Shown here piece after piece: positions 11,712-64,000 of a DNA stretch of 64,000 nt. The notes beneath the pieces are model-generated. The model had not been told where the DNA came from. It ran no database searches and saw only the letters and a program-made list of their open reading frames with translations. Position 1 is the first letter of the stretch. Each line of letters begins with the position of its first letter. Position numbers and translations under genes: made by a program. This stretch comes from an uncultured Bacilli bacterium (GTDB lineage Bacteria; Bacillota_I; Bacilli_A; RF39; UBA660): assembly GCA_947586825.1 (NCBI GenBank), contig CANPXU010000001.1:11815-75814 (forward strand). The letters are read 5' to 3'.

Positions 11712-12767
11712 TTACTTTTTATTCTTTTTCTTATGTTCAAATAAAATATTAGTCTTAGCTACAATAATGATTAAGATAAACATTAATACAATATAGATAG
11801 CTATAGCTAGTTTACTATTATTGCCTAAAGCATAGAATATTGATACTAAAGAGAAAAGAATACTTATAAAATAGATTATAAATAAACTTTTTTTTGGTGA
11901 AAATTTCATTCTAAGAAGTTGATGATGTAAATGTTCTTTATCAGGTTCTCCGATACTTTGATGCTTAATAAGTCTTCTTATAATGGCAAATAAAGTATCA
12001 AAAATTGGAATAGCAAGGATTAACATTGGCACAACTAAAGATGTAATGGTAGCCACTTTAAATCCTAGTAAAGCTATAATCGATATCATAAAGCCTAAGA
12101 ATGTACTTCCGCAGTCGCCCATGAATACTTTGGCAGGTGGAAAATTATGCGTTAAAAAGCCTAAGGTTGAGCCAAGCATAATTAAACATAAAATAACATC
12201 AAGGCCAGAAGTATTACCCATCATAAAGGCAATAACCGATATGGTAGCAAAGTAAATACTACTTACGCCAGCACAAAGACCATCAAGGCCATCTATTAAG
12301 TTAATCGCATTGATAGCAGATACAATAAATAAAATAGATATAATTTGGCCTAACAATATAGGAAAATAAAAGTTAAAGCCTAATAAAGAAATATGTTGAA
12401 AAAATAATCTTCCATAAAAGACTACAATGGATGCCACTAAAAGATGCACCAAAAATTTATATTTAGCCCTAATAGGCTTAATATCATCTAAAATACCTAA
12501 TACTACTAAAATAAATGAAGCTATTAAAATAGATAGCATTTGCGTAGTAATTTCACCATAAGCTATATAGCCAAATAAAAATCCACCATAAATAGCTATA
12601 CCCCCTAGTCTAGGCATAGGATGCTTATGAATTTTTCTTTCATTAGGCATATCCATTGCTCCCACATGGACAGCAAGCTTTTTAGATAGAAATACTAAAA
12701 TAAAACTAACTAGATAAGTTACAATTAATATCTCTAATATATTGTGATTATTAATAACAAAATTCAT
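11712..12767 (-). CDS. tagO: Undecaprenyl-phosphate HexNAc-1-phosphate transferase (TagO/WecA, MraY-like family)
   Basis: 351 aa, ~10 TM segments. Motifs MDMPNERKIHK.PMPRLGGIAIY, NAINLIDGLDGL and FMGDCGS. Confidence 0.85.
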   Translation of the reverse strand: MNFVINNHNILEILIVTYLVSFILVFLSKKLAVHVGAMDMPNERKIHKHPMPRLGGIAIYGGFLFGYIAYGEITTQMLSILIASFILVVLGILDDIKPIRAKYKFLVHLLVASIVVFYGRLFFQHISLLGFNFYFPILLGQIISILFIVSAINAINLIDGLDGLCAGVSSIYFATISVIAFMMGNTSGLDVILCLIMLGSTLGFLTHNFPPAKVFMGDCGSTFLGFMISIIALLGFKVATITSLVVPMLILAIPIFDTLFAIIRRLIKHQSIGEPDKEHLHHQLLRMKFSPKKSLFIIYFISILFSLVSIFYALGNNSKLAIAIYIVLMFILIIIVAKTNILFEHKKKNKK

Positions 12768-35637: not shown

Positions 35638-36666
35638 TTATTTTAAGTCATCTTTTTTAGAAAAGTTTATATTAAATCTATTACCATCAAGGTAAAAAGC
35701 AAAAGGATATATGACCTTTTTTTCATTTACTAAATCTTCTTGTTTAATATCTATTATTCTTTCAATTGTAGGACTTGTATTAACAGTTACCATTTTAGCT
35801 TTGACTGTTTTTACAAATAAAGAAGCATTTTCAGAAGATGATGTAAAAATTGCGGAACTATATCCTGCTCCATTGTAGTTAATTTGAGCGATAGCCTCAA
35901 GAATATCATCAACAATAATAGCATTAGGATAATCTACATTAACATTTTTATTTATATAAACTTCTATATTTAACCCAGTATTTATTATCTTGTTTATAAA
36001 ATCTATATGATTGTTATCTTCGATATAAATTTCAAAGTTTTCATAGCCACTTACTATCGTTTTATTTTTAGTTTTATTTAATATCATATGTTGTAGACTA
36101 TGACTACCAATACAAACCACTAAATCAATATTAGCAAAATTAGCTAATAATTCATCAAAGTTTTCCGAAATATATATTTGCACTAAGTATTTTGATATAT
36201 TAAATTCTTCCAAAACACTTTGTACTATTTGAACTAATAATTGATTGGTACCATACATATATCCTGAATTAGAAAGAATTAATGTATTTCCTGAGATAAT
36301 ATTTCTAATTATCATCTCAATTACAACATAGGGATTACCATCATTAATAACAACTACATTACCAATATCCATTATCTGGGTGCCAAAAGTAAGTTTTTTT
36401 GTTTCATCTTTTTGTAAAACTTTAACATCACCATAAAAGGTATTTTCTTTTTCCAGATTAGAGAATATTTTTTTAACAATATTAAAATCCATTGTAAAGC
36501 CATTATTATTTCTTTTATCAATTGCATTGGCTTCTTTTATGATGGTTTCATTACTTTCTATAGCTTTTTTTATTTGAGGTACTATTAATTTAACATTTTT
36601 AATTAATAAATCTTTTTCTACTTGAAGAGCATTAGCTATTATTTTATTAATATCATTATCTTCCAT
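35638..36666 (-). CDS. ProA-like (gamma-glutamyl-phosphate reductase/ALDH fold) protein lacking the catalytic-Cys segment
   Basis: 342 aa. Colinear with ProA blocks as I recall E. coli ProA: IGNVVVINDGNPYVVIEMIIRNIISGNTLILSNSG ~ [31 protein letters not shown], and AIAQINYNGAGYSSAIFTSSSENASLFVKTVKAKMVTVNTSPT ~ AIAHIREHGTQHSDAILT..A.RF...VDSSAVYVNASTRF. The ..STCN..ETLLV block is absent. The start overlaps the upstream gene by 11 nt. Confidence 0.55.
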   Translation of the reverse strand: MEDNDINKIIANALQVEKDLLIKNVKLIVPQIKKAIESNETIIKEANAIDKRNNNGFTMDFNIVKKIFSNLEKENTFYGDVKVLQKDETKKLTFGTQIMDIGNVVVINDGNPYVVIEMIIRNIISGNTLILSNSGYMYGTNQLLVQIVQSVLEEFNISKYLVQIYISENFDELLANFANIDLVVCIGSHSLQHMILNKTKNKTIVSGYENFEIYIEDNNHIDFINKIINTGLNIEVYINKNVNVDYPNAIIVDDILEAIAQINYNGAGYSSAIFTSSSENASLFVKTVKAKMVTVNTSPTIERIIDIKQEDLVNEKKVIYPFAFYLDGNRFNINFSKKDDLK

Positions 36667-39600
36667 TATTAATACCCCTTTCTATATCCATTTCATCAGT
36701 TAGGCTAATAGCTTTAGCATACATTTCTTGAGCTTGGCTATCAAGTGATGATATATCAACATCTTTGTCTTTGGCTATTTGATCTAAAGCAAGTCTTATT
36801 TGCATTATGACCTGACTTGCAATATCCATTTGTTGCATACCATTATCAACTTTAATATTAAATAATAAATCCGCTATTTTAAGTTTATCCCCGTTTATAT
36901 CATATATAATGGCAAAGTTAGGATTCATAACAATTCGAGCTGTATTAGGATTTAAGCCATAATTTCTAGCAAGTTCTGTGACAATATGTTTAGTATCAGC
37001 ATATTCGCCAAGGTTGGTTTCTAAATAGTTTGGATTATTCTTAGTTACTAATTCTAATTTTTCTAAAGTAAGTAAAGATTTTTCCGTAAATGTTTCATCA
37101 GTATACTCAATAAAGGTATCACTATGAACTGATAAAGTTTCTCCACTGTAAGCTTTTCTATCATCACGCTCTTCTAAAATATATTGGGTTGAAGAATCAT
37201 TTGTATATAATCCTCGTGATAGTTTTACAGGTTCACTAAATGAAAGTGGTCTACTTACAATACTAGTATCAACTTTAGAATTAGCTTTTAATGACTCGGC
37301 AATATCATTATAACCTAAGCCAACGGTTATTTTACCTAGCCTTAGGCCTTCATATTGCTCTTCCGTTATCATGCCTGCTTCAAGAAGGCTTTTATAAACT
37401 TCTTCATCCGCAGCCATTAAATCTTGAGCAGCTTGTTTATATATTTGGAAAATTTCATCAGTAAAACCTTTTCTGCCTAATTCTGGATGTTCTCTATCGG
37501 CTCTAGTAAATGCCTTATCAGGAATTTCAATATTATCAAAACATAGTACATCTTTATTACGCCATACCCAGCTTTGAGCAACAATGTTTCCTTGGCTATC
37601 TCTAATTACAAATACCCTACCATTTTTATCAACCATACTATGTTCCATACAAACCTCAGCACAGTTATTTAACTCTTGGCAACAATCGGTTAATGTTCCT
37701 ATAGCCATAGCAAGAGGATCATCTAAACGTAATATTTCATATGTATAATCACCACTTACCTTTTTAGTATTTTGGCTAATACGAGGAATACTACTAAATA
37801 CTCTTTGCTTACCATAGTTATATATTTGTTGTAGAACATTAAAATCATATTGGCTATAACCCGCGATAGCTGATATTTCAGCAACTTTCTCATTACCCAC
37901 ATTAACGGAAGTATATTTATTAGATTGAATAAAGCTAATTGCTAAATCTAAAGTTAAGACTCTATTACTATTAATAGCTTTTATTTCTGAAAATTGTTTT
38001 TGAATATTAGCAATAAAGCTTATATATTCAGGATTATCTAATATTTCGTCTATATTTTGGAGTAAGAATTCTCTAAAGTCAGGATCATATTTTAATTCAA
38101 AACCACCAAATAATTGATGGGCTTTATTAGGACTTAAAACAGGAACATCAGGATATACTCCAAGCATGCTTCTTATAATATCAGTAGATTTAGGATAACT
38201 TTGGGTATTAATAGTTAAGACATATGTTCCATCGGGCTTTTTGTGATATATTTGACTAAATAATTCTTTATCATTATCAATAGAAAAGCCTTCGGCAATA
38301 AGTGCTTCTTTTAATTTAAGATATTGCTGACAATCTAAAGGCATTTCTGCTCCGGGAGCCAACCCCTTTATTTTCTCTTCGATATGACATAACTCATTGA
38401 TAACATGTTCACAATTAGGTTTTAGATTTCTTGGTAAACTTGTTAATAAATTTTGAAGTTTTTTAAAACCTTTTTGATCTTGATCAAAAGCCCCGAATGA
38501 ATAACCTAATTTAAGCATAGCTTCTCTAGCTTCTTTAGAACTTGCAAAGCTTTTGATTCGCATTAAGTTACTCCAGTTAGAGGCTGAATTCAAAAACTTG
38601 TCAGCATCTTCCAAAGGGAAATTTTGCATAACAACAAAATCAGGAATAAACTTTCTTCCCGTCTTGTCATACCATTTTTTCATAGTCGCTACATTATGGG
38701 CTTTCATCATTTCCATTACAGTTTCAGAGCGACTAATTCCTAACTTAAGAGCTTTTTCTTCTCCGAATAAATTAATAAAATCGATTAAATCTTGTTTTAA
38801 ATAATTACATCTAAGTAAAGAAGAAATTAAAGCTTTACCCTCTAAAAAAGGTAACCATTCCTTATGCTTTTGTAAAACATCAAAGGACAAAGGATAATTA
38901 TTTCCACAGTTATAAAAGAATAATTTTAATTCTTCAGGAGCATCATTACTTAAAAATAATTCTGGATGTCTACTAGAAAGGAAACCTGGAGCATCCTCAG
39001 GTTGATAATCAAGATTACCATTTATACTTTCTCTAATAATAAGATTTTCTATTCTTTTAGCTATAGCTTCAATAGTTAATTCGTTTTGGGTATTAGTATC
39101 AAAACATTTACCATCTTTTATGGTAATTTCTCCATTAAGTAGTTGGAAAATACTATCCATATATCTACCATATTCAGCACATAGTTTTAAAAAGCTGTCA
39201 TTATCAAAAGCATTTAATAAAATAAGATTCCCTGTTGAAAGATTATAAGTATTATTTGATGGATCATTTCTATTACCAAAGGCTACCCATAGATTCTTAT
39301 CTTTTAAAATAGTCATTAACTCAGGATGCTTTTTTATATCATCAAAAGTCATATTTCGATTATAAAAAGCATTAGTTAATCTCATTCTTTCATTCGAAGG
39401 AATATTTACTAAAGAAGAAAGATTAATAAATAGTTCTGGATAAGCATAAACAAACTCAGGAACTTGTGTTAGATAAGCATACTCAACTTTACCACTTACA
39501 ATTTTATTATAAACACTCTTTTTAATGGCACTTTCAATTTTATTTTCATCATCTAATTCATTTTTAGCAATCGTAATAGTTAAATCAGAAAGAACATCAC

Positions 39601-41485
39601 CATATTTAACACATAAACTCAAAAATTTTTCATTGCCATATCTTTTTGTATATTCTTCGATAAAATTCAAAGTTTCTTCTTTTTCAGAATCAGTTATGAC
39701 TAACTTCATATCAGCTTTAATAGTCTGAGCTAAATTTCGATTCACAAGAAAAGGTATATAATCATAATGATTATATAAAAGCTTAGGACTAAGATTATTA
39801 GAGTAAAAAGCTTTTCTTAACTCTTCAGGAGCATTTAAATCCATAAACATATCTGGATGTTTATCTCTAAAACTACCTCGTATCCAATCATAATTAACAG
39901 GCTTAATATTAGAGCCTTCATTTCTTATATAGCCTATGAATTTAGCAAACATATTGGCAAATTCTTCATAAGAAAGATGACCTCGTTGAAAGTTTATACC
40001 ATATTTTTTAAATGCTGTTAAATGGCCATTTGAATAGTGATAGCCAAGAGGACTAAGTGCCTCTAACTCTTGAGACCATTCATAGTCTTTATGAGTAAAG
40101 AATCCTGTTTCTGCCTCGAAAAGGCGGATATTTTCTATACCGAAATTATCCACAATCATTCTTTGTTCTTTATCAATAATACATGTATGGTCATTATATT
40201 GTAATAATTCTTCCCATGTATCTATTTTATTAACAAAAGTAAAATTCATAGATTTAAGCCAGTCCATACTATTAAGTGTATCTAAAGATGGCGTGGAAGA
40301 AACAAATAGATATTCTTTAACGGCTTTAACAAACGATGTTTCTAAATCTTTATCTTTCATTAAAAATTGACTTAAAGAATAAAAATCATTAGCATCAGCT
40401 ATATGTGTAAATACATCAGCATGTCTTTGAACAAGCTTTTGAAATTCGCCTAGGCCATAGTTATCCCTTGCAAAAGTTGCCACATAAGAGGAATTATAGT
40501 TTAGAAAATAATCAATAGGAATCGAAGCAAAAGCATCAGCATAGGTAATTATATCTTGAATAGTTAAATCATGTGCAAAATATCTTTGTTTTACATCATC
40601 TGGTATATTAACATTCAATAAAAATATATCAGCATTTTCTTTAATAAATATATCAGGATATAAATCCACATTAATTTTTCGACTAGAATTAATTATTTTT
40701 TGCCGAGCAAAAGCAAAACATCTACTTTTTATTTCTGTTACAGGGCATACTTTAATTTGCTCTTTTAACTCGTCATAAGAAATACTTGAACTATTAAAAC
40801 GGTAGTCAATACCACCCTCCATATAGATAATTGTATTAATAGCCTCATATTCTTCTTTAGATAATAAGTATAGTTCTACAGCTTTTTTAAGACCTAGTAT
40901 TCCAATTAACTGTACTTCATTATTATGATAATTAATATGAGAATTTAAGTCTTTTGCAGCAACTTCACTTAACTGTTCTGAAGTTAAAGAAGCAAAGTCA
41001 CTAATAGTTAACATTCCTTGATAATATTTAGCTTTAAATTCTTCACTAAAGCTATCTGATAGAAATAAGGAAGCATTTGCTTCAATGGTTTCTTCATCAA
41101 AGTCTTTAACATTGAGTTTTCTTCCTAGTTTGCTAAGATTTCTTACATTACAGCCATGAAAATTACCATGGCCGGTATACTCTACTAAAGCAAAATCAAT
41201 ATTAGCTTTAGTATTAGAAAAATCTATAGGACGGGATTCATCAGCGACAATCGACATTCCTTCCCAAGCTTCAAAAGGAATATCGCTTAAATCATAACGT
41301 AATAAAGTGTTTTGTAAAGCTATATAGTCATTAATAGTTTGTTCTTCCAAAGCGCTATCATCAAAACCAGGATCATCTTTATGAGCATCATAAAAATCGT
41401 CATAGTCTTTAACTAACTTACTTAATTGGCTTTTTATTTGATTGAATTGTTCTAAAGTCATCTTTGGAAACATTTTATACACCAT
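36656..41485 (-). CDS. Giant (1609 aa) cytoplasmic repeat-containing protein of unknown function
   Basis: Long uninterrupted ORF. No signal peptide, TM segment or Walker motif seen. At least five copies of a motif ..F(L/M)..(N/S)..(P/S)(E/D)E(L/F/V)(K/R)..(F/Y)Y...(L/M)(T/S)..D.. . A Cys-rich module TDCCQELNNCAEVCMEHSM starts at aa 1266. Confidence 0.6.
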   Translation of the reverse strand: MVYKMFPKMTLEQFNQIKSQLSKLVKDYDDFYDAHKDDPGFDDSALEEQTINDYIALQNTLLRYDLSDIPFEAWEGMSIVADESRPIDFSNTKANIDFALVEYTGHGNFHGCNVRNLSKLGRKLNVKDFDEETIEANASLFLSDSFSEEFKAKYYQGMLTISDFASLTSEQLSEVAAKDLNSHINYHNNEVQLIGILGLKKAVELYLLSKEEYEAINTIIYMEGGIDYRFNSSSISYDELKEQIKVCPVTEIKSRCFAFARQKIINSSRKINVDLYPDIFIKENADIFLLNVNIPDDVKQRYFAHDLTIQDIITYADAFASIPIDYFLNYNSSYVATFARDNYGLGEFQKLVQRHADVFTHIADANDFYSLSQFLMKDKDLETSFVKAVKEYLFVSSTPSLDTLNSMDWLKSMNFTFVNKIDTWEELLQYNDHTCIIDKEQRMIVDNFGIENIRLFEAETGFFTHKDYEWSQELEALSPLGYHYSNGHLTAFKKYGINFQRGHLSYEEFANMFAKFIGYIRNEGSNIKPVNYDWIRGSFRDKHPDMFMDLNAPEELRKAFYSNNLSPKLLYNHYDYIPFLVNRNLAQTIKADMKLVITDSEKEETLNFIEEYTKRYGNEKFLSLCVKYGDVLSDLTITIAKNELDDENKIESAIKKSVYNKIVSGKVEYAYLTQVPEFVYAYPELFINLSSLVNIPSNERMRLTNAFYNRNMTFDDIKKHPELMTILKDKNLWVAFGNRNDPSNNTYNLSTGNLILLNAFDNDSFLKLCAEYGRYMDSIFQLLNGEITIKDGKCFDTNTQNELTIEAIAKRIENLIIRESINGNLDYQPEDAPGFLSSRHPELFLSNDAPEELKLFFYNCGNNYPLSFDVLQKHKEWLPFLEGKALISSLLRCNYLKQDLIDFINLFGEEKALKLGISRSETVMEMMKAHNVATMKKWYDKTGRKFIPDFVVMQNFPLEDADKFLNSASNWSNLMRIKSFASSKEAREAMLKLGYSFGAFDQDQKGFKKLQNLLTSLPRNLKPNCEHVINELCHIEEKIKGLAPGAEMPLDCQQYLKLKEALIAEGFSIDNDKELFSQIYHKKPDGTYVLTINTQSYPKSTDIIRSMLGVYPDVPVLSPNKAHQLFGGFELKYDPDFREFLLQNIDEILDNPEYISFIANIQKQFSEIKAINSNRVLTLDLAISFIQSNKYTSVNVGNEKVAEISAIAGYSQYDFNVLQQIYNYGKQRVFSSIPRISQNTKKVSGDYTYEILRLDDPLAMAIGTLTDCCQELNNCAEVCMEHSMVDKNGRVFVIRDSQGNIVAQSWVWRNKDVLCFDNIEIPDKAFTRADREHPELGRKGFTDEIFQIYKQAAQDLMAADEEVYKSLLEAGMITEEQYEGLRLGKITVGLGYNDIAESLKANSKVDTSIVSRPLSFSEPVKLSRGLYTNDSSTQYILEERDDRKAYSGETLSVHSDTFIEYTDETFTEKSLLTLEKLELVTKNNPNYLETNLGEYADTKHIVTELARNYGLNPNTARIVMNPNFAIIYDINGDKLKIADLLFNIKVDNGMQQMDIASQVIMQIRLALDQIAKDKDVDISSLDSQAQEMYAKAISLTDEMDIERGINNGR

Positions 41486-41581: not shown

Positions 41582-43693
41582 TTAAAGTTTTTGGCCTCCA
41601 GGAGCATCATTTTTTAAACCCTCTTTTATTTTACTTAGTCTATCCCTTTCTTGTTGGAGTTTTTCAGTATCAGCACATACCCATCCAGGATTATTACGTG
41701 TTAAATTATAAAGGATAGCACTAATATCGCCACAATATTTTTCTTGACCTTCCCATAATAAAACTTCTTCGATAAATTGCCTAACCGGAATACTGATGCC
41801 ATTTGCTAAAATTACTTTTCCATCCATAGGAATGTAGGGAGCATAAATTTCTTCGATATATTTTTTAGCACTTACTTGCGTTCCATCAGGAAGATTTATC
41901 ATTTTATCTAGAAGATCAGGATTAATATATTTAGTGATATCTAAAGGGTTTATCTCAAGAGTTTGGCCTTGAATTTGCAAAGTAATAACTCCCATGTTGT
42001 TTTGCGTTTTATCCATTAAGTATCTAGGTAAATCACCATTATATTTTTCTTGGCATTCAAATAAGATACCCTCTTCTATAAATTGTTTAATAGGAAGCAG
42101 TTCTCCATCATTTAAGATAACAATTCCATTTGCTGGTAAACGAGGAAAAACCATTTGCTTTATATACTCTGCCGCGGACATAACTGAGCCATCAGGCATT
42201 GTTATTTGTCTTTGTAAAAGAGCGCTATTTATTATGCTTAGGAAGTTTTCATCATCAAGATGCGTCTTATCAAGTTCTTTATTAGCTATATTTTTAACTT
42301 GTTTTTCATTTTCTTCGAAAGCATTAATTTTTTCTGTAGCCTTTATATCAAAACAAAATTTATTATCATCTATACCAAATGATTTAGCATTTGTTTTGAT
42401 ACTATTTTGAACTTTGGCTATAAAATCAGGGCTATTTTTAGAAATAAAGCCTGCCATTTGTTTAATAACTTGCTCTAAAGTAGAACCATTAAATACTATT
42501 TCTTTGCCACTTTTAACGGGAATATGGACGTCATCATTATTTGTATAAGTTTTATTAGCTAATTTTTCAAGAAGTGAAGGAATATGTCCTTTAATACTTT
42601 GATATATCATTTCTCTAAAAGATGAAGAATGTACATCTTGTAAGGAATAACCAAAATGCTCATCTATATTTTGGTAATCAACTTCTCCACCTTTTAAATG
42701 TCTTTTATCAGATTCAACCCTAGACAAATACTTTCTCTCTAAACTATTTAAAAACATTTCAACTGCTTTTAAAGTTACAAATTCAGTAAAAGTCATATTT
42801 CTTCCCTGATATTTTATTTGTAAACCAGTATTTTGAATAAAATCGATAGTTTCTCTTCTTATTGCATTTTCTAAAAGCTCAGCTCTTACGCCATTAAAGG
42901 ATCTTGACTTACCATCAGGTGTTGGTTCTGGCTCAGAGCCATAGCCAATCCAACCATCAATTTTACCAGTGAGAATCGGAGGCTCTTTGATTCTAGCTAC
43001 AACATCAGGATGTTCTTTTTTGATTGCTTCTAAAATTTTTAAATATTCATCAAATTCTTCAGTTGGTAAATATATGACAATAGTATCATCACGGTTAGCA
43101 TAAAGATCGAACTTAAAATAATAAGGTAAGTGATGTTCATCAAATTTCTCTACTAGAAATGTAATCATTTTATACGTATCTAAAGATTCAGTATTTATAT
43201 ATAATCTATGGTCAGCTTTAGGATATTTATCCTTTTTAGCAGTTAGATATCTTGAGCATACATGAACCCAGCCACTGCCTTCGCCAAAAGAACGCCAACT
43301 ATAATGCTCTAAAGCTTTTTCTAATTCTTTATCACCCTTTGGGCCATAGAAAACTTCATTAGCTTCTTTCATAGTAGTTACATCAGGAACACCTTTTAAA
43401 TATTTTCGCATTTTAATAAAGTCTTGGCCATAACTTCCTTGACGATATAACTCAATAAATTCTTCTCTAGTCATGGCTAAAATGCTATTTTTCCACTTAT
43501 TAAAAAGCATAGCGTGGAATCTATCACCATCTTGAGCATAATATTCCCCCTTAGTATGTTCTTTTGTTACCATATTAGTTAACTTAGAATAATATGCTCC
43601 TTCGCTAGTAACATAGGCATGTATTAGCTTTTCTATTACTTTAGGATCATCTATTGGATTTGCCACTTGATTATATAATTCGTTTAGTTTCAT
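41582..43693 (-). CDS. Uncharacterised 703-aa protein with internal C-terminal tandem duplication
   Basis: aa 160-210 (HRLYINTES..YYFKFDLYANRDDTIVIYLP) are reminiscent of the R.Y.N...K(F/V)...R.D..V.Y pattern of HopA1/LanKC-lyase-like domains. This is my recollection only. aa ~485-567 and ~588-670 are clear repeats of each other. Confidence 0.5.
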   Translation of the reverse strand: MKLNELYNQVANPIDDPKVIEKLIHAYVTSEGAYYSKLTNMVTKEHTKGEYYAQDGDRFHAMLFNKWKNSILAMTREEFIELYRQGSYGQDFIKMRKYLKGVPDVTTMKEANEVFYGPKGDKELEKALEHYSWRSFGEGSGWVHVCSRYLTAKKDKYPKADHRLYINTESLDTYKMITFLVEKFDEHHLPYYFKFDLYANRDDTIVIYLPTEEFDEYLKILEAIKKEHPDVVARIKEPPILTGKIDGWIGYGSEPEPTPDGKSRSFNGVRAELLENAIRRETIDFIQNTGLQIKYQGRNMTFTEFVTLKAVEMFLNSLERKYLSRVESDKRHLKGGEVDYQNIDEHFGYSLQDVHSSSFREMIYQSIKGHIPSLLEKLANKTYTNNDDVHIPVKSGKEIVFNGSTLEQVIKQMAGFISKNSPDFIAKVQNSIKTNAKSFGIDDNKFCFDIKATEKINAFEENEKQVKNIANKELDKTHLDDENFLSIINSALLQRQITMPDGSVMSAAEYIKQMVFPRLPANGIVILNDGELLPIKQFIEEGILFECQEKYNGDLPRYLMDKTQNNMGVITLQIQGQTLEINPLDITKYINPDLLDKMINLPDGTQVSAKKYIEEIYAPYIPMDGKVILANGISIPVRQFIEEVLLWEGQEKYCGDISAILYNLTRNNPGWVCADTEKLQQERDRLSKIKEGLKNDAPGGQKL

Positions 43694-55196: not shown

Positions 55197-55718
55197 ATGT
55201 TATCAGGTGATGAAATATTAAAACAAATAAAAAAGGGCAACATTAAAATTGATCCCTTTTGTGAAGAGGATATTGAACCAAATAGTTATGTTGTTCATCT
55301 TGCTAATGAACTTTTGGTATATGATAATGATGTCCTAGAGTGCAAAAAGGAAAACACTACGCGTAAAATAACGATTCCTGAAGAGGGCTATATCTTAAGG
55401 CCTGGCGAGTTATACCTAGGTAGAACAGAAGAATATACCGAAACTAATGGTTTTGTTCCTATGCTAAATGGCCGTCTTTCAACAGCAGCTTTAGGTATTA
55501 CGATTCATATTACCGCGGGTTTTGGCGATAATGGCTTCAAAGGTACATGGACTTTAGAAATAATGGTTGTTAAACCAGTAAAGATTTATCCTGGTATGAA
55601 GATTGGTGAATTAAGTTATTTCCCTTTAGTGGGTGATTCTTCTCGCAAATATAAGGGTAAATACTTAGGTCAAAAAGATACTACACCAAGTAGAATCTAT
55701 ACTGACAGAAGTATATAG
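55197..55718 (+). CDS. dcd: dCTP deaminase-family protein, paralog A (catalytic D...E motif retained, GRSS..R motif degenerate)
   Basis: 173 aa. MLSGDEILK.. N-terminus. GRLSTAALGITIHITAGFGDNGFKGTWTLEI, compared with the family pattern GRSS..R.G...H.TA..ID.G..G...LE. Confidence 0.75.
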   Translation: MLSGDEILKQIKKGNIKIDPFCEEDIEPNSYVVHLANELLVYDNDVLECKKENTTRKITIPEEGYILRPGELYLGRTEEYTETNGFVPMLNGRLSTAALGITIHITAGFGDNGFKGTWTLEIMVVKPVKIYPGMKIGELSYFPLVGDSSRKYKGKYLGQKDTTPSRIYTDRSI

Positions 55719-55726
55719 GTATTAAT

Positions 55727-56260
55727 ATGTTATCAGGTGATGAAATAATTAAAGAAGTTGAAAATGGTAATATTATAATTAAACCCTTTGATAAAAAACT
55801 AGTTAATCCTAATAGTTATAATATGACCCTTTCTGACGAGCTTTTAATGTACACAGACGATATTTTAGACTGTGCTAAGGAGAATAGTACTAAAGTAATA
55901 AAAATTCCTGAGGATGGCTTAATTTTAGCTCCAGGGACACTTTATATTGCTAAGACAAATGAAATAACTAAAACAGATAAATATGTTCCATCCATAAGTG
56001 GTCGAAGCTCTATTGGTAGAATAGGTCTTACAGTTCACACTTGTGCAGGTCTTGGAACCGTAGGCTATGAAGGATCTTGGTCTTTAGGCATAACATGTGT
56101 AAGACCTACCAAGATCTATCCTAATATGGAACTTTGTCAAATATATTTCTTTCCTATCGAAGGCAAGATTAATAAAAAGTACATGGGTAGATATCAAAAC
56201 AAAGAAGATATAACACCAAGTAAAAGTTATGAAGATTTTAAAAACTTAAAAAGAGCCTAA
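55727..56260 (+). CDS. dCTP deaminase-family protein, paralog B (GRSS..R motif retained, catalytic D and E replaced)
   Basis: 177 aa. MLSGDEIIK.. N-terminus. GRSSIGRIGLTVHTCAGLGTVGYEGSWSLGI (T for D, G for E). 8-nt gap after paralog A. Confidence 0.7.
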   Translation: MLSGDEIIKEVENGNIIIKPFDKKLVNPNSYNMTLSDELLMYTDDILDCAKENSTKVIKIPEDGLILAPGTLYIAKTNEITKTDKYVPSISGRSSIGRIGLTVHTCAGLGTVGYEGSWSLGITCVRPTKIYPNMELCQIYFFPIEGKINKKYMGRYQNKEDITPSKSYEDFKNLKRA

Positions 56261-57048: not shown

Positions 57049-57626
57049 ATATTATCCTTTATAACTTTTACTAGTTTATCTTTTAATATTGCAAATCTTG
57101 GCATATTAATAACTTCTTCATAATCTAGCCATTTATAATCTCTAGATTCCGAAGTATCTATTTTAATATCTTGCTCCTTTTCGATTAAGAAAAGATAACG
57201 AAAATCATAATGATAATGGCTAGGTAAGTTAAGTCTTTCATTATAGCTTATGTGTTGAGTATCTATATCAAGAGGAATTAAATTATTTTCATTGCAAGAA
57301 AGAACCTTAAAATCATATAGACCGGTTTCTTCAGAGCACTCTCTTAAAGCAGTATCCAAAGGTGTTTTATCTTCCTTATCAACATGACCACCGGGATAAA
57401 GATACATCTTTAAATCCTTATGGTATAAGAACAAAAAACGTTTAGTTTTACGGACATAAATAAAAGCTCCTGCGACAAGATGACCCGTAAAATTATTCCA
57501 ATCTGCTATTTCAAGAGAAGAATGCTTTTGTAAATAATCATAAAACTGTTTTTGTCTTTCTTTTTCTTCAGGATATAGTTTTAAATACTCATTTAATATT
57601 TCTAATACTATCTCTTTCATATTCAT
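57045..57626 (-). CDS. NUDIX hydrolase
   Basis: Nudix box GGHVDKEDKTPLDTALRECSEETGL. 4-nt overlap with the GNAT gene. Confidence 0.8.
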   Translation of the reverse strand: MNMKEIVLEILNEYLKLYPEEKERQKQFYDYLQKHSSLEIADWNNFTGHLVAGAFIYVRKTKRFLFLYHKDLKMYLYPGGHVDKEDKTPLDTALRECSEETGLYDFKVLSCNENNLIPLDIDTQHISYNERLNLPSHYHYDFRYLFLIEKEQDIKIDTSESRDYKWLDYEEVINMPRFAILKDKLVKVIKDNI

Positions 57627-57696
57627 TTATTATTTTATCAAAATATATTATATTCTAACAATACATTTTTATTGTATAATATATACGGTGATATAA

Positions 57697-58245
57697 ATGA
57701 AGGAAGAATTACAACAATTTCTAAACAAAATGAAAACCATTGAATATGGTTGGATAGATAAAGATGGTAATAAATATATTAACCATATTGTTAAAAATAA
57801 ATTTTTAACTGATTACTATTTACAAAAGCCAAGTGAAGTATGGAAGAATCGAATAGGCATATGTTGGGATCAAGTTGAAGTAGAAAGAGAATTTCTTACT
57901 AAAAAAGATATACCTTTCAAAAGCTTTTTAATCCTTTATGATGATGGCCTTAAGTTTCCTAATCATACCTTTGTTATTTTCAAATTAGGTAAAGAATATG
58001 GCTGGATAGAAAATACTTATAAAAATGTTAAAGATGAAATAAGATACTACAAGACTTTAAAAGAGGCTTTAGAGAATGTCAAAAAAGAATTTATATCAGA
58101 AAATGATCTACAAATTATTGGTAATAAATTATACTACTTTGCTTATGATAAACCTAAATATGGTATTGGCTATGAAGAGTTTGCTAAACACTGCCAAATG
58201 GGCATTAAAGCAAATGAAGACTTTAAAAACGTTGATACATTTTAA
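57697..58245 (+). CDS. Hypothetical protein, possibly transglutaminase/papain-like fold
   Basis: 182 aa. GICWDQVEVEREFL ... HTFVIF ... WIEN suggests a Cys-His-(Glu/Asp) arrangement. Weak call. Confidence 0.3.
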   Translation: MKEELQQFLNKMKTIEYGWIDKDGNKYINHIVKNKFLTDYYLQKPSEVWKNRIGICWDQVEVEREFLTKKDIPFKSFLILYDDGLKFPNHTFVIFKLGKEYGWIENTYKNVKDEIRYYKTLKEALENVKKEFISENDLQIIGNKLYYFAYDKPKYGIGYEEFAKHCQMGIKANEDFKNVDTF

Positions 58246-58246
58246 G

Positions 58247-58268
58247 AAGGACGAAAGTCCTTTTTTTA
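58247..58268 (+). terminator. Intrinsic terminator
   Basis: AAGGAC-GAAA-GTCCTT followed by a T-run, immediately after the stop at 58245. Confidence 0.6.
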
Positions 58269-58343
58269 TTTGGCAAATAAAAAACCTATCTTTCATTTAA
58301 GAAAAATAGGTTAAATAAAAGGAAAAGGATTTCTCCAAAAAAA

Positions 58344-60137
58344 TTAAATTTCGAATTTCTTTTTAATTGAATATCCTAAGCCTGCAACACCTAATACAGC
58401 GACAGCTCCACCAACTAAGTAAAGAGGTAGACTATCTAATGTATTTGGATTTCCTTCAGGGTTTTCTTCTGTTTCAGACCCACTTCCTGGAGTTGATTCT
58501 GCAGGTTTATCATCAGGTTTAGTAGGCTGATTTTCTGGAGTATCAGGAACAACTGGAACGTCATTACCCTCATAGAATACTAATATTGTTGTATCAGCAT
58601 TAAATTTAGTATCTTCTTCAGATATTGCTTTTCCATTTACAGCAAAATACATAAATTTTCTATCTGAAGCTGTTTTAATAGCTTCAAGTTTTTCTAGGTC
58701 TTCTCCGGTTAAATCGCTTAATGATGTACCAGGATTAACCCAGATTTCATAATTACCAATACTTAATATTACATAATATGTAGCATGTATTTTTGTATTT
58801 TCAGCAAATGCAGAAGAATCAACTAGTTTTACTTCCTTTGTATCATAATAGTTATTAATATGTTGACCTTCTACATCTAACATTGCATCTAATTTAGCTT
58901 TACCAGTTTCAGATAATTCTCCAAAAGTTTGACCTTTAAATAGGCTTACTTTATCGTCTTTACCATCAACAGTTAAAGTGACAAACCAAATTGCCTCATC
59001 AGATTTACTAGCCACTTTTACAACGTGAGTAGAATCAGGAGTAGTAACACCTATTTCATTTTCTGTATAGTTGTAAACTCTAATGACACCATCACCAGTA
59101 TTAGTACCAACTTCTACAGTTTTATCATCATCTAAAGTATATACATAATACTTATTATCAACATGAACAACGCCTGTTAATCCAGATGCAGGAGCATCAA
59201 ATGATCCATTAGCAAATTGTCCTACATTTAGCTTAACATTATTTCCACTACCAGTAGCAACTGTTAATTTAGCAGCGGTATAAGGAACAGTAACAGTTCC
59301 AGCATTTAAAGTAGCATTTCCTGTAAGAGCTAGGCCTGAACCGGTAACACCGATATCCCCATCTGACCCATTATTATTACTAGTAACAACAGCATTATCA
59401 CTTATAGTACCACTAGTAAAAATTCCTGAATATTTGTTATTTACTACAGTTATTTTAGCATTATCTTCAGCAGTTAAGCCATTAGCTGTAGTTAAACCAC
59501 GATCGTTATCATGAGAATAATATTCACTATTTTCAGATACAATCATATTTCCAATATTTGCAGCACCAGCACAATTAGAAACTTCTACATTTCCGCCATT
59601 TTTAATGACAACAGCATTAGTACGTAAAGCGGTGTGTCCATACCCAGAAATAGAAACCTTTCCACCATCTACTTCAAGAGTACCTTCGTTAGTATTCCAT
59701 CCTTTTTCGCTTCTCTTACTAATAGCAATAGTATTTCCGCCAGAAGTCCTAGCATCTAACTCACCTGTAACAACTAATTTAGCATTAGTATCCAGCAAAA
59801 CATTAATAAGTTTGTTATTTTGAATATCACCAGAACCTGTAACGTATGCATCAGCATCTTCTCTAACCGCAAAGTTAGTTAAAGTTAATTTTCCAGATAC
59901 TGTTAGCGTTTGACTACTATCAACAACAATTCTTCTATTGTCTACAGTAATATTTTCATCAAGATCAAAATTACCAGTAACTTTAATAACACGTGCAAAG
60001 CTATCAGTTAAACAGTCTTTGAAATCACTTTTATTAGCTGCGGTACAAACGCCACCATTTACGTTTGCAGCATTAACACCAGCTACTGCTACACATGAAG
60101 CAAGCATGCCCGTCAAAAATAATTTTAAATTTTTCAT
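58344..60137 (-). CDS. Variable surface protein 1 (beta-helix-like G/N/T/V-rich passenger; signal peptide; conserved C-terminal anchor)
   Basis: 597 aa. MKNLKLFLTGMLASCVAVAGVNA-A signal peptide. P/E/T-rich stalk. C-terminus NPNTLDSLPLYLVGGAVAVLGVAGLGYSIKKKFEI. Confidence 0.7.
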   Translation of the reverse strand: MKNLKLFLTGMLASCVAVAGVNAANVNGGVCTAANKSDFKDCLTDSFARVIKVTGNFDLDENITVDNRRIVVDSSQTLTVSGKLTLTNFAVREDADAYVTGSGDIQNNKLINVLLDTNAKLVVTGELDARTSGGNTIAISKRSEKGWNTNEGTLEVDGGKVSISGYGHTALRTNAVVIKNGGNVEVSNCAGAANIGNMIVSENSEYYSHDNDRGLTTANGLTAEDNAKITVVNNKYSGIFTSGTISDNAVVTSNNNGSDGDIGVTGSGLALTGNATLNAGTVTVPYTAAKLTVATGSGNNVKLNVGQFANGSFDAPASGLTGVVHVDNKYYVYTLDDDKTVEVGTNTGDGVIRVYNYTENEIGVTTPDSTHVVKVASKSDEAIWFVTLTVDGKDDKVSLFKGQTFGELSETGKAKLDAMLDVEGQHINNYYDTKEVKLVDSSAFAENTKIHATYYVILSIGNYEIWVNPGTSLSDLTGEDLEKLEAIKTASDRKFMYFAVNGKAISEEDTKFNADTTILVFYEGNDVPVVPDTPENQPTKPDDKPAESTPGSGSETEENPEGNPNTLDSLPLYLVGGAVAVLGVAGLGYSIKKKFEI

Positions 60138-60203
60138 TTTATCATTCTTCCTTTCTTAAAATATTTTTTGGAACGTATCCTCCTTCCTTTATTTTATAAG
60201 TCC

Positions 60204-60234
60204 ATTATATATATATATATATATATATTGTCAA
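60204..60234 (-). promoter_or_regulatory. Promoter of surface gene 1: TTGACA - 19-nt (AT)n spacer - TATAAT
   Basis: Plus strand has ATTATA at 60204-60209 and TGTCAA at 60229-60234. The spacer 60210-60228 is entirely alternating A/T. Confidence 0.65.
60206..60228. repeat. (TA)n microsatellite, 23-nt uninterrupted alternating run
   Basis: Counted directly from the sequence. Confidence 0.9.
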
Positions 60235-60293
60235 GGGTTTTGGAAGCTTATTGGAGTAAATAAAATCATCTATAACATTTATATTCTTTAACA

Positions 60294-60325
60294 CAAAAAA
60301 ATCCCATTTTCTATTAGAAAATGGG
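60294..60325 (-). terminator. Intrinsic terminator of surface gene 2
   Basis: CCCATTTTC-TATTA-GAAAATGGG (60303-60325), followed on the minus strand by ATTTTTTT. Confidence 0.7.
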
Positions 60326-60358
60326 TTTAATAAAAGGAAAAGGATTACCTATAAAATA

Positions 60359-61795
60359 TTAATTTTCAAATTTCTTTTTAATTGAATAACCTAAAGCTAC
60401 TAATCCAGTACAAGCAATAGCACTTAATATTAAATAACTACCAATACTATCTACTGTATCAGGGTTAGATGTAGTTCCAGCATTTGCTTGATCTTCATAT
60501 GCAAGTGCATAGGTAGAGAACTTGTCAGTAGCAAAGCTTAATTCTGTTCCATCTTCAGATAATACTGTTTTAAGAACTTCAACTTTACCATCATGTTCTC
60601 TTAAAATATAATATACTCTTGTATAGCCTTCTTTTACTTCAGGTAAATCTTCAGGCACTTTAACTGTAAGAGTAATTTCTTCATCTAATTCATGTAAATT
60701 GCGAATTGTCGTACCAGCTTTTACCAAAACACTAATATCTAAATATTTAGATATTGTTGCGTCAGGTAAAGCATCAGCAAATTCTTTCTTCTTATCATCA
60801 TCTACTGTCGTCTCTTTAGCTTCAAGTACAACAGTTACATCATTGTTTTCTATTAACTCTTTTAATTCTTCATCAGTAGTATTAAGTAATGATTCTTTTA
60901 ATACATCACTTGTTTCAGAATCAGTTGTTACAACGTCATCAGCGCCAGGGATTTCAGGAGTTATTTCTACAGGCTTAACCATAACTTTACCATAGCTATC
61001 AACAATATAACCATCAGGTATAAATGCTGACATATCTTGTGGTTCAGATACAAAAGTCTCTGGATCTTGACGGTCGAATTGACCACCTGTAATAATAGTT
61101 TCAGAGCCAGTGACAGGGGCTACAGTTTGAATTTTTTTGCCAGTCATATCTCTAAATATTCCACCTGTAATATTCATTTTTGCATTTTGGCTATTTACAA
61201 CAGCAGGCATATCAGCTTGATAACTTTGATCAAATTGACCACCACTTATATTAGCTGTACCTGCATTCCATAAGCCATAGTTTTTTTCATATAATGTTGA
61301 AACTCTTCCACCAGAAACGTTAATAGTAGCTCCTGCTAAGTTTCTAATACCATAAACAGACGCAATTTGTGGTGAAATAAATCCGCCTTCTAAATTTAAT
61401 TCGCCATAATTATCAATTATTGCTTGTTGAAGTTGGCTTTCAGGATATGCTTTTGTTCTCGTAATGCTTCCACTTGTACCACTATCTTTAATAGTTAAAG
61501 TACCATTTTTTTCAACTTTAATTGTGGGACAATCTACTTGTAATTTTCCTTCTTCAATAGTGTTATTTAAAGTGTGCCCATTTAAATCAAGAACAACTTT
61601 TTCGCCATCTTTTACCTCTAAGTTAAATTCTGCAGTTTTAAGTAGTTTAATAGTTGTAACTTCGTCATCTTCAGTTACTTCAACAGAATCTTTATAAGGA
61701 TCTTCTTTTAAATCTGTTATAGTAGCAGCATTAACAGTAACAACCATTGCAAACATTGCAATCATAGCCATTGTGAATAATTTTAATTTCTTCAT
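60359..61795 (-). CDS. Variable surface protein 2
   Basis: 478 aa. MKKLKLFTMAMIAMFAMVVTVNA-A signal peptide. C-terminus NPDTVDSIGSYLILSAIACTGLVALGYSIKKKFEN. Confidence 0.7.
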   Translation of the reverse strand: MKKLKLFTMAMIAMFAMVVTVNAATITDLKEDPYKDSVEVTEDDEVTTIKLLKTAEFNLEVKDGEKVVLDLNGHTLNNTIEEGKLQVDCPTIKVEKNGTLTIKDSGTSGSITRTKAYPESQLQQAIIDNYGELNLEGGFISPQIASVYGIRNLAGATINVSGGRVSTLYEKNYGLWNAGTANISGGQFDQSYQADMPAVVNSQNAKMNITGGIFRDMTGKKIQTVAPVTGSETIITGGQFDRQDPETFVSEPQDMSAFIPDGYIVDSYGKVMVKPVEITPEIPGADDVVTTDSETSDVLKESLLNTTDEELKELIENNDVTVVLEAKETTVDDDKKKEFADALPDATISKYLDISVLVKAGTTIRNLHELDEEITLTVKVPEDLPEVKEGYTRVYYILREHDGKVEVLKTVLSEDGTELSFATDKFSTYALAYEDQANAGTTSNPDTVDSIGSYLILSAIACTGLVALGYSIKKKFEN

Positions 61796-61860
61796 ATTTC
61801 TTTCTTCCTTTCTTAAAATAATATTTGGAATGCATCCTCCTTCCTTTATTTTATAAGTCC

Positions 61861-61889
61861 ATTATATATATATATATATATATTGTCAA
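61861..61889 (-). promoter_or_regulatory. Promoter of surface gene 2: TTGACA - 17-nt (AT)n spacer - TATAAT
   Basis: Plus strand has ATTATA at 61861-61866 and TGTCAA at 61884-61889. The spacer is 61867-61883. Confidence 0.7.
61863..61883. repeat. (TA)n microsatellite, 21-nt uninterrupted alternating run
   Basis: Counted directly from the sequence. Confidence 0.9.
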
Positions 61890-61937
61890 GGTTTTTTGGC
61901 TATGTGAGGGACTTATAAAATGTAAACTTTTTGTCAT

Positions 61938-61967
61938 TAAAAATCCCATTTCCAATTAGGAAATGGG
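61938..61967 (-). terminator. Intrinsic terminator of surface gene 3
   Basis: CCCATTTCC-AATTA-GGAAATGGG (61945-61967), followed on the minus strand by ATTTTTAA. Confidence 0.7.
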
Positions 61968-61999
61968 TTTAATAAAAGGAAAAGGATTCAAATCAATCT

Positions 62000-63619
62000 C
62001 TAGTCTTCAAGTTTCTTTTTAATTGAGTAACCTAGTGCTATTAGACTAGCTATTGCTATAGCACCACCTGCTAAATAAACAGGAATGCTATCTAAAGTAT
62101 TAGGTATTTCAGTTTCAGGTTTATTTGACTCAGCAGTAACTTCTTTTAGTCCTGCAATTGCAGTATTAAGTTCCTCGGTTACAGTGTCAATTTCATCTTG
62201 ATGAGCTTTAGATAATTCAGGATCTAATTCATATGCTTTTTCAATAGCAGCAGCTAATGCAGCATATGATTCTTCAGTATAATCAGTTGGATCAATTTCT
62301 ATAGCTTTAGCTAAAGCTTCATCTAATGCAGTATAATCAGCCTTTTCTTCAAAAGCAACTGTTACAGTTACTTCGTTAGCAGGCATTACGAATGTAAGTA
62401 CATTATTAATTCTACTATATTCTACTGCCTTACCATCTTTATCAACTATTGTAATTTCGCCTAGTACATAACCTTCATCAGGTTCTAATGTTACTGTAAC
62501 TGTTTGACCAGTTATAGCATTTTCTTTATCAGCAGTAACCGTACCATTTGTAGGAGCAGTAACTTTTACAAGTGATTCTAATCCAACATAAGTAACTCCA
62601 TTTTCAACATAAGTTTTATAACCTTCTGCTAAATATTCTGAATTAAATGCATATTGATCTATAAATTCTCCACCATAGATGATATTATACAAGTCATCAG
62701 AATGAACTGCCTTATGCATATTGCTCTTTGTTTCAAAGATTCCATCATTAACCTTTACTGATAATGCTTCATAATTTTTAGTACCATCCTTTTTTGTAGG
62801 TATTGCATTTATATGTAAAGCGTCATTATTATTAGCAATAAATGTTCCGCCGTTAAATATCCAATTTCCTTTAGTAATAGGAATTGTTATTCCTGAATTT
62901 GCAGTATAACTTCCGCCTTCAAAAGTTACATAAGTGGTTTTAGTTGGAGCAGTATCCGAATCATCCGCGATAACTGATAATCCTGTATTCCAAGTTCCAT
63001 TTAAGGTTATTTGAACTTGACTAGATACTAATAAACCATGTCCATATGGAACACTTATAACAGTATCATCACTTGTAACTAGTTTTGCAACATTATCTTT
63101 ATCAAGTCCACTAACAGTAATAGCGCTTGAATCTTCTTCTATCTCGTCAGAGTATCCTGCAGTGACATTAATAGTTAATTTAGATGTTTTTAAGGATGCC
63201 CCTTGAAAAACATAAATTGCTGAAAGTCCAGTAGATTCTGATACTATAGTACCATTCTTTAATTCAACGTTAGCTACATCTTCAATAGAAAAGCTATTAT
63301 CATTAGTAAATGTTATTGTGTGACCATTTAAATCTAAAACAATGTCTCCTTCTTTAGCCTCAAGGTCTCCATCGCCATTAAACACAAGGTCTCTATCTAG
63401 AGTAATATTCGATCCGGATTTAAGAATTATATCTTGGCAAGATTTTTTATTATTATTCCATTTGGCAGAAATAGCGGCTTCTAAATCATTTACATTATCA
63501 ACGATGCATTCTTGATCTGCGTTTGCATATGCAGGTCTATCAACAGCTGCTGCACTAACTGCACCAATTGATAATCCCATTGCAAGCATGCTTACAACAA
63601 ATAATTTTAATTTCTTCAT
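62000..63619 (-). CDS. Variable surface protein 3
   Basis: 539 aa. MKKLKLFVVSMLAMGLSIGAVSA-A signal peptide. C-terminus IPNTLDSIPVYLAGGAIAIASLIALGYSIKKKLED. Shares VLDLNGHT with protein 2. Confidence 0.7.
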   Translation of the reverse strand: MKKLKLFVVSMLAMGLSIGAVSAAAVDRPAYANADQECIVDNVNDLEAAISAKWNNNKKSCQDIILKSGSNITLDRDLVFNGDGDLEAKEGDIVLDLNGHTITFTNDNSFSIEDVANVELKNGTIVSESTGLSAIYVFQGASLKTSKLTINVTAGYSDEIEEDSSAITVSGLDKDNVAKLVTSDDTVISVPYGHGLLVSSQVQITLNGTWNTGLSVIADDSDTAPTKTTYVTFEGGSYTANSGITIPITKGNWIFNGGTFIANNNDALHINAIPTKKDGTKNYEALSVKVNDGIFETKSNMHKAVHSDDLYNIIYGGEFIDQYAFNSEYLAEGYKTYVENGVTYVGLESLVKVTAPTNGTVTADKENAITGQTVTVTLEPDEGYVLGEITIVDKDGKAVEYSRINNVLTFVMPANEVTVTVAFEEKADYTALDEALAKAIEIDPTDYTEESYAALAAAIEKAYELDPELSKAHQDEIDTVTEELNTAIAGLKEVTAESNKPETEIPNTLDSIPVYLAGGAIAIASLIALGYSIKKKLED

Positions 63620-63686
63620 ATTATCAATCTCCCTTTCTTAAAATATTTGTTTGGAAAATATCCTCCTTCCTTTATTTTATAAGTCC

Positions 63687-63717
63687 ATTATATATATATA
63701 TATATATATAAAGTCAA
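63687..63717 (-). promoter_or_regulatory. Promoter of surface gene 3: TTGACT - 19-nt (AT)n-containing spacer - TATAAT
   Basis: Plus strand has ATTATA at 63687-63692 and AGTCAA at 63712-63717. The spacer is 63693-63711. Confidence 0.6.
63689..63710. repeat. (TA)n microsatellite, 22-nt uninterrupted alternating run
   Basis: Counted directly from the sequence. Confidence 0.9.
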
Positions 63718-63797
63718 GGGTTTCAAAAGCATTTTCCTATATAAAATTAGACATAAAAAAGCCACTTTTTGGCATAAAAATGGCTTTAAATAAATTT

Positions 63798-64000
63798 CTA
63801 AATTTTTTCACAATTCACTTCGTTCTTATAAATTATATTAACATAGCCACTATAAGTCCTAGCCCATACCTCATCATTCATAATAAATATCTCTAAAGCA
63901 TCAAATAAAGTACCTGTTCTATAAAAGGCTGGAGCTAAAGGATTAGTACTTGTCGCATTCTTTTGTCCATCTTTAGTTAAACATTCTACCCTTTTTTGAG
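63798..64000 (-). CDS. 3' end of an unidentified gene entering from the right edge (partial)
   Basis: Not in the ORF track because the start is off-window. The minus-strand frame from 63998 reads QKRVECLTKDGQKNATSTNPLAPAFYRTGTLFDALEIFIMNDEVWARTYSGYVNIIYKNEVNCEKI* with stop TAG at 63800-63798. A hairpin AAAGCCATTTTT..AAAAAGTGGCTTT follows. Confidence 0.5.
   Translation of the reverse strand, partial: QKRVECLTKDGQKNATSTNPLAPAFYRTGTLFDALEIFIMNDEVWARTYSGYVNIIYKNEVNCEKI

Follow-up and report, generated by a model that had tools for sequence, protein, structure and literature searches.

Alternating TA tracts as promoter spacers and putative gene-by-gene switches of three surface-protein genes in an uncultured Bacilli bacterium

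The stretch of DNA analyzed here, 64,000 nucleotides from an uncultured Bacilli bacterium and referred to throughout as the window, carries three genes in tandem on the minus strand, in the order C, B, A, each of which is preceded by a promoter whose -35 and -10 hexamers are separated by a (TA)n tract. Gene A (58344-60137, minus strand) encodes a protein of 597 amino acids (aa) in which a signal peptide precedes a beta-rich ectodomain; at its C-terminus, the motif NPNTLDS leads into a transmembrane stretch and KKK. The product of gene B (60359-61795, minus strand; 478 aa) likewise has a signal peptide, and its C-terminal signal consists of NPDTVDS, a transmembrane helix and KKK, while that of gene C (62000-63619, minus strand; 539 aa) combines a signal peptide with IPNTLDS, a hydrophobic stretch and KKK. 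Overall identity between pairs of these proteins amounts to 21-28%, and the DNA shared by the three genes comprises the promoter, the leader and the start of the signal peptide at one end and the C-terminal anchor and the terminator at the other. The gene layout thus reads as a cassette with constant ends and a variable middle.

On the coding strand, TTGAC(A/T) is followed in each case by an alternating A/T run, TATAAT and then GGACTTATAAAATAAAGGAAGGAGGA, which is the same in genes A, B and C. In the gene A promoter (60204-60234, minus strand) the -35 hexamer TTGACA (60234-60229) and the -10 hexamer TATAAT (60209-60204) enclose a spacer of 19 nucleotides (nt) with the sequence A(TA)9. The corresponding elements of gene B (61861-61889, minus strand) are TTGACA (61889-61884), a 17-nt spacer, A(TA)8, and TATAAT (61866-61861), and those of gene C (63687-63717, minus strand) are TTGACT (63717-63712), a 19-nt spacer, T(TA)9, and TATAAT (63692-63687). 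Uninterrupted alternation extends over 23 nt at gene A (60206-60228), 21 nt at gene B (61863-61883) and 22 nt at gene C (63689-63710). An earlier note on this DNA had described the (TA)n runs as the -35/-10 spacers of all three genes; the window sequence bears this out, and a recount returned exactly the same hexamer spacings and run lengths. The single correction concerns the trinucleotide CCC said to stand before every -35 hexamer, as it is ACC that precedes the hexamer of gene B. The two promoters cited there for comparison do possess 17-nt spacers (TTGCCA-17-TATAAT, which adjoins a T-box leader directly downstream, and TTGACT-17-TAGAAT). The statement that only the middle gene has the optimal spacer is in line with the promoter geometry: the gene B promoter is the sole 12/12 match to the promoter consensus within 57600-64000 and, in the sequenced state, the only one of the three with the consensus spacing of 17 nt. 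The consensus scan of this region yielded no further promoter-like site upstream of gene A or gene C. Alternating A/T runs of at least 10 nt occur nowhere else in the window, the G+C content of which is 29.3%, and (TA)8 did not arise once in 100 dinucleotide-preserving shuffles. Intrinsic terminators are present for gene C (61945-61967), gene B (60303-60325) and gene A (58283-58312), all on the minus strand, and A, B and C are read as three separate transcription units, each with its own predicted sigma-A-type promoter and terminator.

The length of the tracts varies between assemblies. Homologous promoters were collected from 17 public contigs of independent assemblies (individual contigs are given below as L numbers), and 25 of these promoters are complete. 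Their spacers measure 19 nt in seven cases, 17 nt in six, 15 nt in seven and 13 nt in three, with one example each of 7 and 5 nt; all 25 are odd and hence in register with 17. In the species of the window the spacers amount to 19, 19 and 15 nt for gene C (15 nt in L009), 17, 19, 15, 15 and 17 nt for gene B and 19, 13 (L001) and 19 nt (L002) for gene A, with the addition of L008, which lacks the -35 hexamer of gene A and the greater part of its tract. In sister lineages with a seven-gene cluster, values of 19, 13 and 5 nt were found for gene 1, 19, 13, 15 and 15 nt for gene 2, 7 nt for gene 3, 15 nt for gene 4 and 17, 15, 17, 17 and 17 nt for gene 6, the orthologue of B, for which one similar deletion was also present. 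Approximately 44 kb of near-identical pairwise alignment contain three substitutions and eight indels, seven of which are whole TA units in the tracts. Between contigs that have only 0-1 substitutions in 2-12 kb, hardly anything but the TA tract differs: L003 deviates from the window by one TA unit and nothing else over 3461 nt, and L012 and L011 are free of substitutions over 11.9 kb and are set apart by a single TA unit and by a 14-nt indel that is unrelated. These comparisons demonstrate that the tracts are hypermutable in steps of whole TA units. The polymorphism among related genomes that the earlier note had anticipated is therefore present, the same three promoters differing in 2-nt steps.

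It is very improbable that the length differences are artefacts, be it of PCR or sequencing stutter or of mis-assembly at the paralogue repeat of about 60 nt in low-coverage metagenomes. Such an origin would be in keeping with contig coverages of 2.6-8.6x and with the fact that contigs start or end in or beside tracts (L003 at both ends, L007, L011, L018), places where assemblers struggle. The block of -35 hexamer, tract and leader, approximately 60 nt in length, is however repeated between the paralogues, and a repeat of this kind breaks de Bruijn assemblies anyway, which accounts for the contig breaks and renders contig ends at the tracts neutral evidence; for the same reason they were discarded as a sign of heterogeneity within samples. 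Furthermore, independent assemblies give matching lengths for one and the same promoter (17 nt in L013, L014 and L015, 15 nt in L002 and L003, 17 nt in the window and L009), differences of 6-14 nt far exceed stutter, a k-mer spanning the hexamers links tract length to the unique upstream flank, and gene order is the same in all assemblies.

Promoters of the sigma-70/sigma-A type work poorly with spacers of 15 and 19 nt and are inactive when the spacer is 13 nt or shorter. Homologous promoters of the same family that are free of repeats have spacers of 17 nt (L028), 16 nt (L026) and 18 nt (gene 7 of L010), and the leader of the last-named gene bears the same GAACTTATAAAAA as the TA-gated genes. 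In any one assembly at most one TA-gated gene has a spacer of 17 nt, and this is always B or its orthologue. We consider it likely that the (TA)n promoter spacers serve as independent ON/OFF switches, one for each gene. Slipped-strand mispairing during replication would add or remove whole TA units, and the spacer would move in 2-nt steps (13, 15, 17, 19) with both hexamers left intact. At 17 nt the perfect consensus would allow transcription of the gene, and at 15 nt, or at 19 nt and beyond, RNA polymerase would contact both hexamers poorly, leaving the gene off or very weakly expressed. In the sequenced state B alone would be on. Because the three tracts would mutate independently, a population would come to contain cells with differing combinations of the A, B and C proteins. 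The tract polymorphism lends support to the proposal, made before, that hypermutable (TA)n spacers act as independent switches, and transcriptional switching, that is the effect on expression, is together with its reversibility a well-founded inference from the sequences. Host immunity or phage may be the selective agent.

Repeats of other kinds occupy the same promoter position elsewhere in the family. In another rabbit-gut lineage, three paralogues are preceded by TTGACT-TTAAAAGTTC-G8-TATACT with an 18-nt spacer (L019 5908-5937, 7851-7880 and 9479-9508; also in L020 and L021). In the metagenome-assembled genome (MAG) GCA_947588765.1 (L054) the promoters of three paralogues (5502-5531, 7940-7969 and 11830-11859) contain poly(T), twice as TTGAC-T17-GATAGTAT with a spacer of 18 nt and once as T18 with 19 nt, and in a further member (L055, 7947) the spacer, 21 nt long, includes a run of G7. 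Other long homopolymers do not occur in the G8, T17/T18 and G7 loci. That a single family carries three types of repeat at one promoter position argues for selection in favor of a mutable spacer. The wider proposition, that a family of sortase-B-anchored, beta-rich proteins in rabbit-gut Bacilli is gated gene by gene through a spacer filled repeatedly with (TA)n, G8 and T17-18, we regard as evenly balanced between true and false.

Beyond the family, a metagenome scan with the 25-nt leader gave no matches, and one for TTGACAA(TA)n...TATAATGGA yielded 21 loci on varied contigs with 18-57% G+C, about half of them upstream of secreted or membrane proteins. TTGACA-(TA)n-TATAAT precedes the genes of a small secreted protein family, unrelated to that of the window, in L035, L039, L047, L053 and L052, with spacers of 13 or 15 nt depending on the sample; these proteins end in LPKTSAAK or LPKTHAVK, the signal of those class B sortases that NCBIfam names LPKTxAVK-specific. 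The same promoter type is found in front of a CoA-transferase gene (15 nt in L037, 13 nt in L048 and in L049), and the TA-spacer motif is thus not confined to surface proteins. The scan for the TA motif suggests that promoters with TA spacers may be scattered through gut Firmicutes.

Several observations weigh against a role of the tracts as switches. The ON or OFF state is deduced from promoter geometry alone, and 17 nt was seen at gene B and its orthologue only, the other genes always having other lengths. At the low coverage of the assemblies (approximately 2.6-8.6x), stutter could account for an individual allele call. The 19-nt alleles carry a TATATA hexamer at a distance of 17 nt from the -35 hexamer, so that the OFF state may leak. 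The G8 tract was constant in length in all seven instances (7/7), that is, hypermutability of the G variant was not observed. In L001 (7714-9307; MAG GCA_947631885.1) a frameshifting deletion of 26 nt splits gene C, which is otherwise the same as the window copy, into reading frames of 174 and 239 aa. Tracts of 5 and 7 nt and two deletions of -35 hexamer and tract resemble irreversible decay. The two deletions (L008 380-395 and L010 9915-9935) arose independently in different genes and lineages, removed the -35 hexamer together with most of the TA tract and in both cases fused upstream A/T-rich sequence directly onto ...ATATAATGG; the TA tract hence seems to be a deletion hotspot able to lock a gene off.

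Spacers of 5 and 7 nt, these two deletions and the frameshifted gene C would also be expected if the tracts were hypermutable without any regulatory role, as unstable A/T-rich spacers of dispensable genes that drift to inactivation. The majority of alleles lie off 17 nt, and the presence of a (TA)n spacer before the gene for a cytoplasmic CoA-transferase in other metagenome contigs points in the same direction. Such drift is nevertheless an unlikely explanation, as 20 of 27 alleles (74%) are at 17 nt or one TA unit off and almost all assemblies have intact reading frames. Moreover, at least 10 paralogues and orthologues, from species with coding DNA only 75-93% identical, have kept perfect tracts free of any break, whereas neutral tracts would gain interruptions, and other lineages of the family bear different repeats at the same site. 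We therefore favor the view that spacer length would switch the genes individually.

A further alternative is that the tract acts by another route, as an invertible promoter, a cruciform or supercoiling sensor or a regulator site, and that changes in its length are incidental. (TA)n is its own reverse complement, so that neighboring tracts are both direct and inverted repeats of each other, and it is established DNA chemistry that self-complementary (TA)n can extrude cruciforms. In addition, part of the -10/leader sequence recurs in inverted orientation (ATTTTATAAGTCC...; 61901-61921) immediately upstream of the gene B promoter, pairing with 61848-61868 over 21 nt (86% complementary), so that this promoter is flanked by an inverted repeat. 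We give this alternative very little credence: the inverted repeat exists at gene B alone and has just 32 nt between its arms, none of the genes called in the surroundings of the locus or of its relatives was noted to encode a recombinase, no contig has the promoter in inverted orientation, the leader is without conserved RNA structure, and a structural role would leave unexplained both the exact placement of the hexamers at the ends of the tract and the register of all lengths with 17. An invertible promoter of the fimS or CwpV type in particular was rejected, on the grounds of an inverted repeat at one gene, no recombinase noted nearby and a single orientation in every contig. The inverted copy at gene B is judged to be a relic and no switch, and it may be the scar of a past rearrangement. 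Regulation of genes A, B and C through the length of their spacers thus remains the reading that we prefer.

The 5' leader of gene C (63620-63686, minus strand) contains two conserved blocks, GGACTTATAAAATAAAGGAAGGAGGA on the 5' side and, with the ribosome-binding site, ATTTTAAGAAAGGGAG on the 3' side; the leaders of genes B and A extend over 61796-61860 and 60138-60203, respectively, also on the minus strand. A conserved RNA structure in the 5' leader was considered and dismissed, as there is merely a 4-bp stem and no covariation, and Rfam gave no match at the locus. Each leader contains AAGGAGG, a strong Shine-Dalgarno-like sequence (within 60178-60203, 61835-61860 and 63661-63686), approximately 15-20 nt away from the predicted 5' end; the real ribosome-binding site follows about 40 nt downstream. 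No start codon comes after AAGGAGG, and we take it to resemble the 5' mRNA stabilizers of Bacillus (STAB-SD).

The proteins encoded by A, B and C are probably secreted and anchored to the surface by a class B sortase, as judged from their termini. The signal peptides of B and C end in VNA/A and VSA/A, respectively, similar to sites of signal peptidase I (SPase I), and neither has a lipobox cysteine. At the C-terminus all three proteins have a tripartite signal consisting of the motif, about 20 hydrophobic residues and a KKKFE tail. Among the homologues (126 family members were retrieved) the motif position is mostly occupied by xPKTGD, xPQTGD or xPQTFD, a sorting signal of the sortase type, and in the window proteins the G of PxTG, present in most homologues, is replaced by L or V. 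Genes for class B sortases adjoin family genes in L010 (12992-13888, minus strand) and L026 (4289-5122, minus strand), and their products score 169 and 175 bits against the TIGR03064 cut-off of 153.75. A tblastn search found no sortase gene in the 64-kb window, and one is missing too from the spot syntenic to the sortase of the relatives.

Pfam and NCBIfam gave no more for the three proteins than an InlB B-repeat (Flg_new_2) and a weak FIVAR match in gene C. The ectodomain of the gene B product is beta-rich, its N-terminal half being beta-helix-like. The corresponding AlphaFold (AF2) model is of good quality (pLDDT 83.6), is rich in beta structure and ends in a C-terminal helix (449-477). Foldseek searches of the PDB with this model led to weak matches with beta-helix tailspikes (best E 6e-4, TM approximately 0.13), too weak for the assignment of a specific function from the fold. 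In relatives there are weak matches to Beta_helix and Pectate_lyase_5. In a sister species (L005 576-3372), compared with window positions 60067-60966 and 63227-63723, the 5' end of gene 2 is like window gene C (75% DNA identity) and its 3' half like window gene B (85%); the preceding gene likewise has a 3' half similar to that of gene B at its end. This mosaicism suggests that recombination between paralogues may have shaped the family.

Exact or near-exact copies of the locus were found solely in rabbit-gut assemblies labelled "uncultured Bacilli bacterium". The window encodes several wall-related proteins, namely an LCP-family protein, a TagA/WecG transferase and an LtaS-like sulfatase-family protein, and in relatives the family genes reside within the dcw cluster, between the genes for a penicillin-binding protein and MraY. 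Because of these wall genes and the dcw setting, the organism is taken to be a walled, low-GC Gram-positive bacterium and no mycoplasma. An origin from a plasmid or phage was rejected, as megablast of 58000-64000 against plasmid and phage collections gave no match. Among the other genes of the window are two tandem paralogues resembling dCTP deaminase (55197-55718 and 55727-56260; Pfam DCD in the related locus L007), with genes for a RelB-like antitoxin, an acetyltransferase and a NUDIX protein as neighbors. The open reading frames at 36656-41485, 41582-43693 and 15315-17264 include one of 1609 aa without a Pfam match, an adjoining one for a 703-aa protein with a HopA1-effector-like domain and, further away, one whose 649-aa product combines cadherin-like and type I dockerin domains.

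Work on phase variation in gut commensals has so far mostly dealt with DNA inversion, and the surface of Clostridioides difficile (CwpV) and Bacteroides (capsule promoters) is phase-variable through site-specific inversion by recombinases (PMC2784873, PMC10403206). The locus described here would share with these systems the combinatorial diversity of the surface, but differs in that no such inversion switch is present at genes A, B and C. It suggests that uncultured walled Firmicutes may also use switches based on promoter repeat length, which are best known from pathogens and mycoplasmas and which in this case would vary a set of wall-anchored proteins independently of one another. Counting TA units at defined promoters would offer a ready metagenomic marker of population heterogeneity, and proteins of the A/B/C type are indicated as targets of host antibody or phage pressure. 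If our reading is correct, the switch evolved repeatedly within one gene family, and three repeat types at the same promoter position provide a natural case for its study. In Bifidobacterium breve, replication slippage is described as the ON/OFF switch of sortase-dependent pilus clusters (PMC9187656). A slippage-switched, sortase-dependent structure in a Gram-positive gut commensal would be the common feature, while the genes and the phylum are different.

Promoter spacers made up of repeats are known to control genes in several bacteria, and the comparisons with hifA/hifB and vlp drawn in the earlier note were correct, although Vmm/Vmc, whose (TA)n spacers are the nearest precedent, had been overlooked. 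In Haemophilus influenzae a TA repeat sets the -35/-10 spacing of hifA/hifB, and changes in the number of units switch transcription (PMC3899988); there, a single tract serves two divergent, overlapping promoters of a Gram-negative organism, whereas at least three unidirectional promoters, one per gene, are involved here. The poly(A) spacer of vlp in Mycoplasma hyorhinis and the poly(G) spacer of porA in Neisseria meningitidis likewise control their genes (PMC10502178, PMC3899988). With vlp our genes would share the organization as a multigene family with one switch per gene, and the T17/18 and G8 promoters of the relatives directly resemble the vlp poly(A) and porA poly(G) tracts. Those tracts are homopolymers that change in 1-nt steps and belong to other protein families, in contrast to the dinucleotide and the 2-nt steps of the window genes.

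In Mycoplasma mycoides SC, Vmm is switched ON and OFF by (TA)n between the -35 and -10 hexamers (PMC2628566, PMC10502178), within the mycoides cluster (TA)n tracts with differing repeat numbers precede several lipoprotein genes (PMC3053259), and JCVISYN3A_0481 of JCVI-syn3A is off with (TA)13 and on with shortened tracts (PMC10448532). The mechanism is thus one of a known kind, given that (TA)n spacers already switch Vmm, JCVISYN3A_0481 and hifA/hifB. The Vmc genes are reportedly contingency genes with combinatorial expression (Wise et al. 2006). Gain or loss of TA units in the spacer of a surface gene, conserved 5' regions and divergent mature proteins are features that Vmm/Vmc and the present genes have in common. 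With what is reported of Vmc they also share the presence of several paralogues, each with its own tract, from which combinatorial expression would result. The Vmm/Vmc proteins are, however, small lipoproteins of wall-less Mollicutes, in contrast to the beta-rich proteins of 478-597 aa studied here, with their SPase-I-type signal peptides, sortase-B-type C-terminal signals and a genetic background of wall synthesis. Pfam and NCBIfam scans of A, B and C revealed no match to a lipoprotein or Vmm/Vmc family, a direct sequence comparison with Vmm/Vmc not being part of these scans. Membership in the Vmm/Vmc family was rejected in view of the missing lipobox cysteine in B and C, the large beta-rich proteins and the walled host. 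A literature search of incomplete coverage found no TA-spacer switch described in walled Firmicutes, and the locus would, if our reading is true, be the first contingency system of the Vmm/Vmc type with a TA spacer described in such an organism. The relation is one of "works like" and not of "is a member of": the mechanism is already known, and what is new is its setting, a walled, uncultured gut Firmicute with large proteins that carry sortase signals.

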